Below are positions 19,330 to 25,222 of a stretch of DNA of 64,000 bases, piece by piece. Both the position numbers and the translations under genes were made by a program. Source of the stretch: a virus (Duplodnaviria; Heunggongvirae; Uroviricota; Caudoviricetes). Numbering within the stretch: position 1 is the first letter of the stretch; every line of letters starts with the position of its first letter. The DNA lies in IMG/VR virus record IMGVR_UViG_3300028887_000001, positions 92,088 through 156,087 of that record; one strand, 5' to 3'. The notes beneath the pieces are model-generated. The model ran no database searches and was not told where the DNA came from. It saw nothing but the letters and a program-made list of their open reading frames with translations.

Positions 19330-20940
19330 TTATTCTTCCAAAGACGGTATAAACGCCTCAGTTTCTATTCCATGTTCTTCCATTCCAACTCTAATGTCAT
19401 CGAATATATAACCACCAGTTGTTGGTGTCATATCTGGAATCCTTATGAAATAGAATTTCATATCCTTTGGTGATAATGTCACAACATCTGTTATGCTATT
19501 TGGAAGGGAACCATCTTCTTCAAACGCATCAATGTCTTCCTTGGTCAAATTATCCAATGCTTCCAAATATTTCTTGTTTTCTGCCTGGAATAATTCATCA
19601 GCCTCTCTCTTAATGGTTTCGTGGTACTCTTCAACCAAATCTTCCCATGGGATGTTACACTCATCAACAAATGGTGGCCTTTCACCAATCTTCTCCCAGA
19701 ATTCAATTTCCTTTCTTTCAGGTGTCATCAACGCCTCATACGTGTCTTGGTCTTCCGGCTTCATTGGGTAGCCACTAACCAACACAGATTCTTCTTTTGT
19801 CCAGAATTTCCTGTCCTTTGGGTTCTTGATTAATATCTCATCCCTTATTGATGGGTGGAAACATACCAACAACGGAGTTATTCTCTTATTGAACTGCTCA
19901 ATGTATTTCTCAACATTGTATTCCAAATCTGGAATGTCTGAACACAACAAGTCTTTCTCATTCTCAATGACATCAAATGGAACAAGTTTACAATTCAGTA
20001 TTACCTCATCCTCTTCCCTTACAATATAAGACTTTAATATCTCCTTTCTGTCTTTCGTTTTTAATGTCTTATACTCAATTCCACGCTTCTCACACTCTTT
20101 CTTTAATATGTTACTCTTAACCTTACCAACCAACTCAATCTCTTCATTTGGGTTGTCCGGATTCTTAACATATTGATGTGTTATTCTCTTTGCGTCAGTC
20201 TCACTCTTCTTTGAACCAGTATTGACATAATATATTGTATCACCTGGATTGACATTTAATCCCTCCCTTATCGCCAATTCATACCAAGCCTGTCTTGATT
20301 TCTTTGAACCACTCTTGGTTAATGTATTACAATCTTTCTTGTATTCATCAAGAGATTTCTTTATATTGCCCTTAGAAGCAATATCTCTAACAGATATGCG
20401 ATAATTGTAAATGTCATCGATATAGTTGTAATAAGATTCCAAGAATTCTTCTCCCTTACCATCAATCAACAGTTCAAGAGCATTTTCAAGATATTTCTGT
20501 AAATAACCAGACATCTTTCTTGATTTGATTGTATTACCAACCTTTTTAATTGAACCGTCTCGCTGCATACGACAACAATAGTTCTTTCTGGAGAAGTTAA
20601 TGCTGCTTTCTACATATTCATCAATCTCATTTGCAGACATGTTATTCTTTGAGCCGTTATAACACTTGTTCAAGAATAAATCATTAAACTCAGCAAAATC
20701 TGCTTCTGCATTAATATATGCCTTACCCTCTTTAACATACCTGTTCAAACCCTTTCCAATATAAGGGTTGTCCTCTGTGTATCTGAATTTCTCAGGTAAT
20801 TTGAAATCGAAGCCTATTCAGCCATCGGTGTTGCTAATTACGTTCATACCAAGGGCGTTAACTACCGTTCCGTCCAGTGATATGTCGTACACAACACCGA
20901 TGTTTTGGCTATCCTCCATTTTTTTAATGTTAATACTCAT
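19330..20940 (-). CDS. polB: Family-B DNA polymerase C-terminal half, fused to C-intein, with in-frame TGA at codon 41
   Basis: ATG at 20940 gives MSINIKK...VYDISLDGTVVNALGMNVISN|TDG*IGFDFKLPEKFRY..., in frame with the tracked 19330-20748 ORF (...KSRKMSGYLQKY... thumb region). Confidence 0.85.
20830..20940 (-). mobile_element. Split intein, C-terminal fragment (37 aa)
   Basis: Block F-like VYDISLDG and terminal ISN, followed by Thr+1 of TDG. Confidence 0.85.
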
Positions 20941-21019: not shown

Positions 21020-22702
21020 TTAAGTTATGTTTTTTTTCCAAACATATTTATATAGACCACAATCCCATATTTTATATGCGCCTATCTTTTCAGCCATTTC
21101 AGATTCTGTTAGTTCTAATGGCAAATTAAATTTTTTATGCAAAATTTCTTTTCTGAAATTGAATTTATGTACCCTTTTATAATCGCCATCAATAACATAT
21201 CTGTAGTCTGGCTTTAGTGTACATTCTAATGTAAATCCTAATTTTGTATACAAATTTTCTTTTTTATTTGTTGTCCATCTTTTATCAGCGAATGATTTAA
21301 CAATCTCTGGGCTATAGTTCTTAATAAAGTATGAAAACAATTTTCCTCCAACGCCTTGACATATATAGTTAATATTTGAAGCGAACCTATTCAATTCCCA
21401 TTCATTATCCTTGCTCTTAACAAATGTCATAACACCAACGAGTTCGTTATTATATGTTGCACCAAGGTAAATTGTTGCTTTTTGTGAACCTTGAATATGG
21501 TTTGTATTTAGAAAATCTTTTGATTCCTTATAAGTAATTTCAGAAACACGACACTTTCTTCCATTTATTTTTGGTAAATTATTACATTTTATTAAATGTT
21601 GTATTTTACTTAATACAATATCTTTTTTATCATTATATTCATCCTCAAAAATATGAATTAGTGAAATGCCATTTTTATTACACTCTTCTGTTTTGTTCAG
21701 GTGATAATATTTATCCTTTCCGAATTGTTCTGAATGCCACCTGCAACCATCATATTCTATGCCAAGTTTTAATGATGGAATAAATATGTCTATCTCTGCA
21801 TGGTGTTCCAATATTGACCTTTCTTTTTTAATAACATTTTCCTCACCTATTTTTTCGACAATAAATTCATATATTTCATTTTCTTTCTTGGAAAGTTGAC
21901 TGGCACATCTTACGCAATTACTTCCTTGTAGATGTGAATCTGGCGTTTGCCAGAACTCTCCATGAACTGGGCAGATTATACAAACCTCCGTGTCATATCC
22001 TTTATATTCAACCTTTGAATAATCATACTTATCACCGTGGATTTCTTTTGCTCTTTTGATGAATTCTTCAGTTGTAAATGCCTGAGATTTAGATGACTTT
22101 TCGTTGGCACATTTTTTACAGCCCCGTCCACTTAAATGTTTATTTGGGGTTTGCCAGAACTCTCCATGAACTGGGCAGATTATACAAACTTTAGTATCAC
22201 AATTTGTATATTCTACTTTAGAATAATCATACTTATCACCATGAATTTCTCTTGCGTTTTTTATAAATTCTTCTAATGTTTTACGTTGTTTCTTATGCGA
22301 ATGTTCAATACCACATTGTTTACAACCATTACCACGAAGATGGGCATTTGGAATTACATCAAATTCACCATGTTTGGGACAAATTACAGTTACTTTAACA
22401 TCACTTTTAACGTAGTTAACTTTGGAATAATCATATTTATCTCCATGAACTTTTTTCGCCTTTTCAATAAAAGACTCCCTTGCGATTTTGTTCTGTAACT
22501 CACACCATTTTAGCTTGTTTTCCTTACCACATTCTTTACACCCACACTTATCCAATAAATGACTTGGTGTACCATAACCTATTAAATTGTGTTTTTTACA
22601 TAAAAATTTAACCTTACCATTTTCATAGCCTAAATAAACATACAATCCGCCTCTTTTTTCATTGATTTTTTCAATAAACAATTTTTCGTTAAATCTGCCC
22701 AT
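21020..22702 (-). CDS. Free-standing homing endonuclease (zinc-binding DNA-binding repeats, Vsr-like nuclease, Hef-like C-terminus)
   Basis: Three tandem HGDKYDYSKV...CPxHGEF...HLxGxxCxxC repeats, an EIDIFIP...IEYDGCRWH nuclease motif and a NHIQG...IWDCG tail. Confidence 0.85.
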   Translation of the reverse strand: MGRFNEKLFIEKINEKRGGLYVYLGYENGKVKFLCKKHNLIGYGTPSHLLDKCGCKECGKENKLKWCELQNKIARESFIEKAKKVHGDKYDYSKVNYVKSDVKVTVICPKHGEFDVIPNAHLRGNGCKQCGIEHSHKKQRKTLEEFIKNAREIHGDKYDYSKVEYTNCDTKVCIICPVHGEFWQTPNKHLSGRGCKKCANEKSSKSQAFTTEEFIKRAKEIHGDKYDYSKVEYKGYDTEVCIICPVHGEFWQTPDSHLQGSNCVRCASQLSKKENEIYEFIVEKIGEENVIKKERSILEHHAEIDIFIPSLKLGIEYDGCRWHSEQFGKDKYYHLNKTEECNKNGISLIHIFEDEYNDKKDIVLSKIQHLIKCNNLPKINGRKCRVSEITYKESKDFLNTNHIQGSQKATIYLGATYNNELVGVMTFVKSKDNEWELNRFASNINYICQGVGGKLFSYFIKNYSPEIVKSFADKRWTTNKKENLYTKLGFTLECTLKPDYRYVIDGDYKRVHKFNFRKEILHKKFNLPLELTESEMAEKIGAYKIWDCGLYKYVWKKNIT

Positions 22703-22750: not shown

Positions 22751-25222
22751 TTAACAACAAATTCTTTTTAAAAATTGTAGTCCAGCACGGCATGTTTTTG
22801 ATGTATTAGAATAATCCCAATCGCCAATATAGGATAGAAATTGTTTTTGTGTTGATTTGTTTGAGTTTAGTATTTCACACGGAATCCTATCAATTATTCC
22901 TCTCATAAGCCATTTTGCCATACATTTCACTGTAAATCCTTTTGGGTGTAATGTAAAATTATCTCCTAGTTCACCTTTATAATATTCTAATTTTGTATTC
23001 TCATTAATTTCAGAAGGTTTGATTTTTTCTTGCTTATCATTAAACAAAGAATGGTCTTCAGTAACATCAACGATGGTTTTTCCATCATTAATTCTGTATA
23101 TTTCTTTATTTGTTTTGTGCCTATATATGTAATTTGGTTTTACCCAACCACTTCTGCATAAAACCTTATATGACTTTTCTGATGTGTCATACTCCCTACC
23201 AAGTACATCTGTTTCTGTTGTACCAATCAATTCCTCAATTGGCTTTATATCAATCAAATTACTATTATCATATTTTATAAACAAAGGCGTGTCACCACTA
23301 AAAGAATCACCAACTATTGGTTCATACCCTAAGCCTTTGAGGTAATATATCATTATCCTCAATAGCATACGTCCTATGCATGTTGTTTTTTCCGCAGCAT
23401 TTAAATCGCCCCATGGATTAAGCCCTGGGCACCCAAGACTTCCGAACCAACTATTTGCCAACTTCTTCAAAACTAATTGTTGGTTATCATGATTTATTTT
23501 GTCTGCAAGAACAATATCTCTTTCTGCTGATAGTTTCTTATAAACAGAACTTGGCTCGTCTAACGTCTTCAACTGATTGTACATCTTCTCAGCCTCCTTT
23601 TCGGAACTCTTTTTAAGGCCCTTGTGGTATTCTCTCTGGACCAAAACATACATCAACATTGGCAGTGTGATGTGCATAAAATCAGTTGCCGGCTCTATAT
23701 TCCAAGTAATCTGAGTTGTTGGGTATAGTGCTGCATAGTCACCCTTACAAAGTGACGTTACAAATCCAGTTCTAAGTAACCTTGATAAACCGCCAGTATA
23801 CTTCTTATTCTTTCCAAGACTAGGGACTGCCAAATTATGCTCATAAGCCCAAGTCAGAAGAATCAATTTCCATTGGGTTGCAGTACCCATTGTTGCTACA
23901 CGAGGGAATGTCGTTGGCATAATTTTTGTTAAGTGGAAATCTGTCTCGTGCAATGATAATTCAACCTTATCGCACTCCCAAAGGTCATCAAGCAAATACC
24001 TTTCAACAATATACTTACCACTTACCATTTCATATCCATCTTGCAATGGCTTTTCTTCGCTTACCTTATACCAATCACCATTTGTGTCATTGAATGCATA
24101 AACAGGTTCTGTAACGCGCCACGTTGTCTCAATGATATTGCCTGGTACGTAGACACGGTTCTGTTTATTAAGTTTAAGGTATTGTGTGGCATATTTTAGA
24201 TTAGCCTTTTCGAAAGACGAATCCGTTGCCATTGCTCTTCTCACAGCATGAAGACTATCAACCACATTATGGTATTTAATAACCGTTTGGAAGAATGTCT
24301 CAACCTCGCCACCAAGCTTAAGTGTTGTTGGTTTTGACTTCTTATATATTCCCTCTCTTAGATACCTTTCAGATAATTGTTTAAAGTCAATATTTCTCAT
24401 TTGGCATCTAACAATGATGAAATCCCAGTCAAAGTTTTCAGAGTTGTGGCCGAAAATAACATCCGGTTTTTCTTCTGAAATTATTGACATAAATTGCCTT
24501 ATTGCCTTTAGTTCATTCTCTTCCTTTTCTTCCTTGGTATCACCTGTAATTGTTAATATCTTTTCAAACCCCTTATTGGTTCTGATACCGATTTGTGATA
24601 TATGATGTATCTTTGGGTTAAGTCCTTCTGTTTCAAGGTCAAATGACATTCTTTTAAGGTCGTCATAATTGTCATATCCCTTAAAATATCTTTTTCCAGT
24701 CTCAATCATAAACTGTTCAACTGGCTGTAGTGTCATAAACTCTTGAGAAGACGGTTCATTATCTTCTACTTTCTTTTGTCCCCTTAATGGTGTTCCGGCT
24801 TTTTTAAAGAAGTCCTGGAATTTGCCCATTGACATTTTTGACTTTGCGTAGAATAGATATTTGTAACCGTTATCTAGTTTTTCATGTGGATATGGGTTGT
24901 CCTCTCTACAGGTATATAATGGTTTAATGCCTATATTAGCTTTTCTCATTTCAGATTTTAACTGACTTCTGTTCCCATCGAACATTCTAACACAAGCACT
25001 ATTCTTTGCCCAAGCAAATGGTTTAAATGGTTCTTTTCTGATTTTTTTAACACCGTCATCATCAACAAACACGATTTCGGCATCTGCATTATCATATCCC
25101 AATTCAATTGATATGATGTGCTTTAGTGGGTCTGAACCCTCAAAAAACTTTGTAATGTCTTCTGCTGTGATTTCAGCATGCATTGGCATTATATGCCCAG
25201 GAAATGTTTCTTTGTAAGCCAT
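22751..25222 (-). CDS. polB: Family-B DNA polymerase N-terminal half, fused to N-intein
   Basis: Exonuclease motifs FDLETEG and GHNSENFDW; motif A DYAALYP; motif B KKLANSWFG; motif C broken at IVGD|SFSGDTP. Confidence 0.92.
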   Translation of the reverse strand: MAYKETFPGHIMPMHAEITAEDITKFFEGSDPLKHIISIELGYDNADAEIVFVDDDGVKKIRKEPFKPFAWAKNSACVRMFDGNRSQLKSEMRKANIGIKPLYTCREDNPYPHEKLDNGYKYLFYAKSKMSMGKFQDFFKKAGTPLRGQKKVEDNEPSSQEFMTLQPVEQFMIETGKRYFKGYDNYDDLKRMSFDLETEGLNPKIHHISQIGIRTNKGFEKILTITGDTKEEKEENELKAIRQFMSIISEEKPDVIFGHNSENFDWDFIIVRCQMRNIDFKQLSERYLREGIYKKSKPTTLKLGGEVETFFQTVIKYHNVVDSLHAVRRAMATDSSFEKANLKYATQYLKLNKQNRVYVPGNIIETTWRVTEPVYAFNDTNGDWYKVSEEKPLQDGYEMVSGKYIVERYLLDDLWECDKVELSLHETDFHLTKIMPTTFPRVATMGTATQWKLILLTWAYEHNLAVPSLGKNKKYTGGLSRLLRTGFVTSLCKGDYAALYPTTQITWNIEPATDFMHITLPMLMYVLVQREYHKGLKKSSEKEAEKMYNQLKTLDEPSSVYKKLSAERDIVLADKINHDNQQLVLKKLANSWFGSLGCPGLNPWGDLNAAEKTTCIGRMLLRIMIYYLKGLGYEPIVGDSFSGDTPLFIKYDNSNLIDIKPIEELIGTTETDVLGREYDTSEKSYKVLCRSGWVKPNYIYRHKTNKEIYRINDGKTIVDVTEDHSLFNDKQEKIKPSEINENTKLEYYKGELGDNFTLHPKGFTVKCMAKWLMRGIIDRIPCEILNSNKSTQKQFLSYIGDWDYSNTSKTCRAGLQFLKRICC
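22754..23305 (-). mobile_element. Split intein, N-terminal fragment (184 aa)
   Basis: Block A SFSGDTPL and block B VTEDHSLF, with no C-terminal Asn before the stop. Confidence 0.85.

Follow-up and report, generated by a model that had tools for sequence, protein, structure and literature searches.

To our knowledge, translational bypassing was for decades known from a single natural bacterial or phage case, T4 gene 60, together with yeast mitochondria. Here, we describe a site in the gene for a family B DNA polymerase (PolB) of a tailed phage (Caudoviricetes), located in a window of 64,000 nucleotides (the whole stretch of DNA that was analyzed; positions 92,088 to 156,087 of the IMG/VR record IMGVR_UViG_3300028887_000001). 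Comparison with its relatives makes it probable that ribosomes perform a programmed glycine-to-glycine hop over a stop codon at this site, aided by a stem-loop on its 5' side, and that the site is carried by a mobile intein/endonuclease cassette. Several described systems are close to this locus in one respect or another. In T4 gene 60, the bypass cassette ends a homing-endonuclease element and shields the target of that element from re-cutting (10.1101/2022.08.31.505936), and the stem-loop 5' of the gap has been proposed to pull the messenger RNA (mRNA) by refolding (10.1101/2024.12.09.627546). Synthetic stop-hops function in E. coli (Weiss et al. 1987, as summarized in PMC5009743), and according to the same 2016 review, no in-frame stop-hop was known from nature, and shorter equivalents of gene 60 in nature had been anticipated for a long time (PMC5009743). 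The fractured genes of Dassa et al. 2009 (PMC2677866) are the nearest counterpart of the gene arrangement, and in that study bypassing was named only as an unlikely alternative for a kilobase-sized gap. In our literature searches, no report of a comparable site turned up in connection with a polymerase or an intein.

The source record is a complete virus genome (G000; 348,671 bp, with terminal repeats). Its PolB locus lies on the minus strand, where the polymerase gene is broken into an N-half, an endonuclease-like open reading frame (ORF) and a C-half. Read 5' to 3' on that strand, the interrupted site has the order AAC ACC GAT GGC TGA ATA GGC TTC GAT TTC AAA, with TTC at 20811-20809, and a GGCT direct repeat flanks the insert. 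The initial annotation had pointed to this in-frame TGA between matched glycine codons; all details of that description hold except the strand, as the gene is encoded on the minus strand. Its further statement that deletion of the 9 nt restores TDGFDFK with the frame kept was confirmed by re-reading the sequence. The open frame in the window comprises 495 codons counted from ATA, or 493 from TTC, and ends at a stop at 19330-19332. From the 5' end of the locus, its parts are as follows:

22751..25222, minus strand: PolB N-half with fused N-intein; exonuclease and part of the palm and fingers, ending ...IVGD; Pfam matches DNA_pol_B_exo1 and DNA_pol_B.
21020..22702, minus strand: free-standing homing-endonuclease-like gene, 560 amino acids; DUF723-type repeats and a weak restriction-endonuclease-like match.
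20821..20940, minus strand: first ORF of the C-half by translation, with its ATG at 20940; a 37-residue C-intein ending ...VISN, then the extein residues T-D-G.
20821..20823, minus strand: proposed take-off codon GGC (the Gly of TDG); GGC in 33 and GGT in 4 of 37 distinct alleles carrying the insert.
20818..20820, minus strand: in-frame TGA stop, which would occupy the A site during take-off; a stop in all ~40 alleles carrying the insert.
20815..20817, minus strand: spacer ATA; 0-4 nt of variable sequence in relatives.
20812..20814, minus strand: proposed landing codon GGC; GGN in every allele carrying the insert.
19330..20811, minus strand: resumed ORF, the remaining PolB C-half, 493 codons plus stop, beginning FDFKLPEKFRY; homologues mostly read TDGF(N/D)F.

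To establish how widely the interruption is distributed, we examined homologues of both parts of the C-half. Searches with the C-half itself recovered 1402 homologues, most of which are split C-halves reading ...SN followed directly by TDG-F(N/D)F..., with no residues between the two; many of the closest relatives are annotated as truncated genes with varied downstream methionine starts. Searches with the 40-residue product of the first ORF recovered 194 clusters of such mini-ORFs, and among the 120 listed (37-70 amino acids), 101 terminate exactly at ...NTDG before the stop, with one of these clusters occurring on 119 contigs of up to 413 kb. A tblastn search of the C-half against a 50,697-record phage collection gave no match. 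We classified the site in 148 loci from ENA, Logan, IMG/VR and JGI/NCBI metagenomes, which segregated into 56 distinct insert-free alleles and about 40 distinct alleles with an insert at the identical nucleotide. Every insert consists of a stop codon, 0-4 nt and a GGN codon, and is followed by TTY-AAY/GAY-TTY. By length, the inserts are distributed as follows:

9 nt, 22 distinct alleles: TAGCTAGGT/C/A, TAACTAGGT/C, TAGTTAGGC/T, TAGATAGGC, TGAATAGGC
8 nt, 14 distinct alleles: TGAATGGT/C/A, TGACAGGT, TGAAAGGT, TAACTGGA
7 nt, 1 allele: TGAAGGC
6 nt, 1 allele: TAAGGT
5 nt, 1 allele: TAGGT
10 nt, 1 allele: TAGCTGAGGT

The exact 9-mer of the window, TGAATAGGC, was seen in the window only. All three stop codons are represented among the insert alleles (TAG in 20, TGA in 15 and TAA in 5), and in no insert allele is the stop replaced by a sense codon. 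Apparent sense variants (TDG-QLG-FNF, TDG-W...) were traced to contigs that yield them only when TAG is read as Q or TGA as W, and were set aside as artefacts of gene calling under an alternative code. In two such loci (L150:162-1706 and L151:361-555), public translations with TAG=Q or TGA=W give spurious 'QLG' or 'W' polymerases; the interrupted gene on a short contig seems to have pushed the gene caller to the alternative code. Since about 40 alleles from independent assemblies share this anatomy at the same nucleotide and 101 of the 120 listed mini-ORF clusters end at ...NTDG, chance is not a credible explanation on this comparative record. The recurrence that the initial annotation had proposed to look for among polymerase homologues is thus present, and the null allele or assembly error that it had listed as an alternative is excluded by the occurrence of the insert across many assemblers, samples and complete genomes.

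Across this variation, four features of the site are fixed: an initial Gly codon, the stop that follows it at the would-be A site, a spacer that is short and variable, and another Gly codon. Whatever the insert length, reading on from GGN leads in each allele into the conserved, open frame of the polymerase. The insert is in frame in 23 alleles and is not a multiple of three in the other 17 of the ~40; because the polymerase frame nevertheless resumes after the second GGN in these 17, readthrough is not the general mechanism. Codon usage at the two glycines is also distinctive. Landing codons comprise 24 GGT, 9 GGC, 4 GGA and no GGG, whereas the same Gly in insert-free alleles is encoded by GGT in 25, GGC in 7, GGA in 16 and GGG in 10 (Fisher p = 6e-4). 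The landing codons are therefore biased to GGT and GGC, the codons read by the tRNA that decodes the predominant take-off codon GGC.

The sequence after the landing codon retains a clear coding signal. The landing frame runs on for ~470-500 codons without a stop in nearly all insert alleles, and the exceptions include relatives with a group I intron further downstream. Over the first 21 codons past the landing site in 31 insert alleles, the proportion of synonymous sites that differ (pS) is 0.84, which is saturated, and that of nonsynonymous sites (pN) is 0.16, giving a pN/pS of 0.19; the F-N/D-F codons directly after GGN show synonymous variation only. By this substitution pattern, the segment after the landing codon is under purifying selection at the protein level. 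The downstream distance to the first in-frame ATG, GTG or TTG ranges among alleles from 4 to 57 codons; in the window, this first start is a TTG at codon 21. Because the start position varies and the codons before it are conserved as protein, a downstream restart fails to explain the pattern.

The polB gene is, separately, a hotspot for mobile elements. Some relatives carry a group I intron in the C-half ~70 codons after the landing codon, with L071:2807-3131 scoring 62.7 bits (above the Rfam threshold) and L015:3297-3508 scoring 41.7 bits (below it), and a comparable gap of ~380 nt is present in the C-half of L068. An IS200/IS605-type pair (Y1 transposase and OrfB/TnpB) lies ~5 kb downstream of the C-half of a close relative (L001:12248-13368).

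A second conserved element is located immediately upstream of the take-off codon. In insert alleles, synonymous sites are fixed in the five codons before the stop, and the neighboring codons and those between the two complementary blocks have diverged like those of insert-free alleles. The two blocks, in which AUCGGUGUUG pairs with CAACACCGAU, form a basal stem with the following arms, both defined by pairing and covariation analysis:

20891..20902, minus strand: 5' arm of the basal stem (I-G-V-V codons of the C-intein).
20823..20834, minus strand: 3' arm of the basal stem (S-N-T-D codons and the first G of the take-off codon).

Between 8 and 10 of the 10 pairs can be formed in all 37 distinct insert alleles (37/37), against 12 of 58 insert-free alleles that reach 8 pairs even in the best of 33 registers. 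In the proper register, all ten pairs occur in only five of the 58 insert-free alleles, which belong to a sister clade and are mostly weakened to G-U. When 40 insert alleles are aligned, pairing holds in 99.4% of cells, and compensatory double changes occur at three pairs (A-U to G-C, G-C to C-G and G-C to A-U). None of 500 shuffles equals the observed covariation score (0/500), and all slid controls collapse. Some of the changes in the 5' arm are non-synonymous and are offset by synonymous changes in the 3' arm, which argues for selection on the pairing rather than on the protein. An independent RNAalifold run recovered the same stem in a longer form of 12 bp, in which the first G of the take-off codon is also paired, and the 85-nt hairpin segment has a minimum free energy of -34.1 kcal/mol (z = -5.6). 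The inner helices of the long hairpin show mostly one-sided variation and no covariation support. From its 10-12 bp length and the position of its 3' arm, which abuts the take-off codon, we infer that the stem stimulates the hop. A smaller hairpin (GCC-CUUGG with CCGAU-GGC) was also considered; on average, insert alleles form it more strongly (Mann-Whitney p = 7e-5), but several of them lack it and shared ancestry confounds the comparison, and it was dropped in favor of the basal stem.

We next consider the genomes that carry the interrupted gene. Three insert-bearing genomes are complete or nearly so: G000 (complete), G001 (96% complete, 8-nt insert) and G002 (100% complete, TAG 9-nt insert). 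Each encodes a single PolB, and no family A polymerase, PolIII alpha or second PolB was found in any of the three. On this gene content, the interrupted polymerase gene must function in its carriers. The code is standard: ORFs of at least 100 amino acids, measured stop to stop, cover 88% of G000, no region is markedly better with TGA or TAG read as sense, TGA terminates 6 of 40 long ORFs in the window, and sampled 20-kb pieces of G001 and G002 behave alike. No suppressor tRNA was found in G000. A scan of the whole genome (349 kb) for other instances of a codon, a stop, a short gap and the same codon again returned only ordinary gene junctions; the sole other Gly-Gly candidate, at genome position 160560, is the normal start region of a UDP-galactopyranose mutase. 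Outside the window, the genome carries an odd tRNA gene (L152:254-326; G000:C1:4253-4325; Rfam tRNA, 42.8 bits) with the six-base anticodon loop UUACCA, which ARAGORN calls Val|Gly with a two-base anticodon and which, read as ACC, would be a Gly tRNA. It has no DNA similarity match in five related genomes, insert carriers included, and nothing therefore ties it to the hop site.

The context in which the site is embedded is that of a split intein. The N-intein (184 amino acids, fused to the PolB N-half) has Ser as its first residue and begins S-F-S-G-D-T-P. Block A (S-F-x-x-D-T-P) and block B (T-E-D-H) are invariant across 27 relatives, the C-terminal junction reads ...S-N followed by Thr, and unsplit relatives are continuous at the junction (IVGD-TDG-FNF, i.e. 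IVGDTDGFNF). The N-intein was recognized neither by Pfam, whose intein models gave no score, nor by PDB sequence searches, and for this reason the intein assignment rests on the motifs and on the junction in relatives. In the predicted complex of the N-intein with the 40-residue product, the interface score ipSAE is 0.89 and that of the best control 0.00, the partner has a predicted local distance difference test (pLDDT) of at least 76, and runs agree in at least 94% of contacts; among 80 solved complexes, 58 reach the ipSAE mark used here, as do 2 among 110 mismatched pairs. The model supports docking of the N-intein and the C-intein, a score that may owe something to likeness to solved split inteins. 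With blocks A, B and G at its junctions and unsplit relatives continuous across them, the locus is, by sequence comparison, of the fractured-gene type. Relatives of the endonuclease ORF hold the same position in most related loci. Their presence or absence does not separate the allele classes, as insert and insert-free alleles both mostly carry relatives (27-95% identity) and some of each are without one. The C-terminal third of the endonuclease-like protein (21020-22702, minus strand) gives weak GNAT matches (Acetyltransf_7, E ~1e-4, below the Pfam cut-off), an unusual pairing with DUF723-type repeats for a homing endonuclease.

The phyletic pattern of the insert resembles that of a mobile element. 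In a tree of the C-extein (87 alleles), insert status changes at least 18 times, and at least 12 of these changes are forced by well-supported branches. Even within a single intein clade the length varies (5, 6, 8 and 8 nt). On the take-off side, the intein together with ACC GAT GGC is near-identical among alleles whose exteins are only 55-60% identical, and the third base of the landing codon varies like that of a host Gly codon. Given the near-identical take-off side, the host-like third base at landing and the many changes on the tree, the stop-spacer piece behaves as the 3' end of a mobile intein/endonuclease cassette, one that has moved into many different polymerases and stayed functional there. 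The insert may plausibly have arisen as a repair or junction scar where the cassette ends on its 3' side, an origin that is compatible with a hop, and protection of the endonuclease target site, by analogy with T4 gene 60, may be a benefit that it confers.

In the sequence of events that we propose, translation of the C-half would start at the ATG at 20940, pass through the C-intein and reach T-D-G. At that point GGC would be in the P site, bound by peptidyl-tRNA-Gly, and TGA would be in the A site; the tRNA would then release its codon, the mRNA would slide by 9 nt (5-10 nt in relatives), and the same tRNA would re-pair with the next GGN, so that decoding restarts at TTC. The product, ...TDG-FDFK..., would match the uninterrupted sequence of insert-free and unsplit relatives, and trans-splicing with the N-half would rebuild GD-TDG-FDF, catalytic motif C of the polymerase. 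A ribosome positioned on GGC would hold the 3' arm of the stem inside, and re-zipping of the stem behind it could pull the mRNA forward by up to ~10-12 nt, matching the shifts of 5-10 nt.

Several observations weigh against a programmed hop, or against parts of this mechanism. All of the evidence for it is comparative (site anatomy, recurrence, selection, and the stem with its covariation), and it is from this that we infer both the hop and its efficiency. The insert alleles share ancestry through the mobile intein, and part of their conservation is inheritance. A few sister alleles without the insert likewise have an intact stem, which is perfect in L009, so the stem may predate the insert or have another role. 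The four GGA landing codons are a wobble mismatch for a tRNA with the GCC anticodon. A further allele class carries a single extra T (GGA/GGC T TTC AAC; L101:2615, L109:2615 and L110), without a stop and without a second Gly codon, and a Gly-to-Gly hop fails to explain it. This class accounts for ~14 of the 120 listed mini-ORF clusters (...NTDGFQLPNA) and retains most of the stem; its frame 0 stops 6-10 codons later, near a conserved ATG, and the class may rely on +1 shifting at U-UUC or on a restart of translation at that ATG. Simple stop-hops in E. coli are inefficient, at about 1%. Premature termination could also free intein-TDG peptides able to splice onto N-halves and waste them, a cost that would argue for a high efficiency of the hop or for a regulatory role. 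Finally, the insert of the window is itself in frame, so for this allele readthrough is possible.

Readthrough, whereby TGA would be read by a near-cognate tRNA and an enzyme with three extra residues (X-I-G) after DTDG would work, accommodates the in-frame insert of the window and of the other alleles with such lengths (23 in all), but would leave the 17 alleles with inserts of 5, 7, 8 and 10 nt in the wrong frame. It also sits poorly with a stop that never mutated to sense, although most single-base changes would have done so and given the same protein as readthrough, and with relatives, split and unsplit, none of which has residues between TDG and F(N/D)F. As no suppressor tRNA was found, the code is standard and the invariable GGN end of the insert would be left unexplained, we regard it as very unlikely. 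The initial annotation had offered hop and readthrough together, and these part company here: the matched glycines, invariant stop, frame-indifferent lengths, purifying selection past the landing codon and covarying stem favor the hop, and readthrough does not stand as a general mechanism. Reassignment of the stop, with the phage decoding TGA (TAG in relatives) as an amino acid, might seem to follow from the public gene callers' use of TAG=Q or TGA=W for some relatives. It is contradicted by the coverage of G000 with long standard-code ORFs, with no marked gain from recoding and like results in the samples of G001 and G002, and by the long window ORFs that end in TGA; all three stops occur at the site among close relatives, and the out-of-frame inserts would stay broken under any reassignment, which leaves it with hardly any probability.

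A polymerase in three pieces, with translation ending after TDG and the thumb part made by internal initiation or termination-reinitiation and associating non-covalently, is the least improbable of the alternatives, though still unlikely. In about half of the alleles an ATG lies four codons past the landing site (FNFQ-M-P), two alleles with a 1-nt insert (L101, L109) keep that ATG near their frame-0 stop, and family B polymerases that are split are known (PMC2677866). No start occurs close to the site in the window and in many relatives, however, the codons from the landing site up to the first start are conserved as protein (the pN/pS given above), and neither the invariant GGN nor the directly adjoining in-frame F-N/D-F is explained. 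The version put forward in the initial annotation, with re-initiation for example at TTG 20748, is disfavored by the same distance of 4-57 codons to the first start and the conservation of the codons before it. The interruption might instead be removed before translation, by RNA excision or editing or by polymerase realignment on GGYT repeats, or be carried by defective genomes kept by helper phages. Short direct repeats (GGCT...GGCT) do flank the window insert, and polB genes of relatives hold other self-removing elements, namely group I introns. Yet the repeats are just 2-4 nt long and imperfect in most alleles, three complete or near-complete carriers have no other polymerase, and the purifying selection on the downstream frame counts against removal and defective genomes alike. 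We also know of no bacterial mechanism that excises 5-10 nt. Removal before translation and defective genomes together are highly improbable, marginally more so than readthrough.

Taken together, we lean towards a natural, efficient stop-hop of 5-10 nt, driven by refolding of the 5' stem behind the ribosome and residing within a mobile split-intein/homing-endonuclease cassette that has spread through essential polymerase genes of large gut and rumen phages; we hold this fuller account a little less firmly than the hop itself. If true, this would give short stop-hops their first natural family and the gene 60 principle a second instance, independent of the first. The dozens of natural variants in stop codon, spacer length and stem sequence would constitute a ready-made mutational series for codon release and landing, and could test whether refolding of the mRNA at the exit channel pulls the message forward. 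For annotation, the consequence is that gene callers cut an essential polymerase into a 40-residue ORF and a truncated gene, or misassign an alternative code to the contig. The link between a homing endonuclease and recoding seen in gene 60 would be repeated in another gene, suggesting that selfish elements can, by a general route, leave scars in essential genes that remain decodable.

Set against the described systems, the polymerase site most closely resembles T4 gene 60. The two share matched Gly take-off and landing codons, a stop directly 3' of take-off, a resumed frame independent of gap length, and an mRNA structure formed from sequence 5' of the take-off codon. In both, a mobile homing-endonuclease element divides a phage gene that is essential for replication and has the site at its 3' edge, and the product is, or for PolB would be, that of the uninterrupted gene. 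They differ in that the PolB gap is 2-7 nt (a shift of 5-10 nt), leaving no room for an in-gap take-off hairpin or Shine-Dalgarno element, against 50 nt in gene 60; the host gene is PolB instead of a topoisomerase; the endonuclease belongs to another family than the MobA-type HNH enzyme; the split is healed here by a split intein and there by N- and C-terminal extension tails; and there is no sequence similarity. The polymerase site is thus not a member of a gene 60/MobA family, and the likeness is one of mechanism only. Among the synthetic stop-hops, those of +5, +6 and similar length fall within the PolB range, and one relative (L052; GGT TAA GGT) has the textbook form; those hops, however, are engineered and of low efficiency, whereas the PolB site is natural, conserved, located in an essential gene and accompanied by a covarying stem. 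The byps of Magnusiomyces capitatus mitochondria (cited in PMC5009743) are longer, at 27-55 nt, occur in mitochondrial translation with its relaxed decoding and at many positions place an unused codon, not a stop, in the A site, as against a single 5-10 nt site in a phage that uses bacterial ribosomes. With the fractured genes (PMC2677866), the locus shares its entire layout, namely an N-half with N-intein, an endonuclease ORF, and a C-intein with C-half in a phage replication gene; the arrangement described there lacks the stop-containing insert that in the polymerase gene lies three codons into the C-extein.

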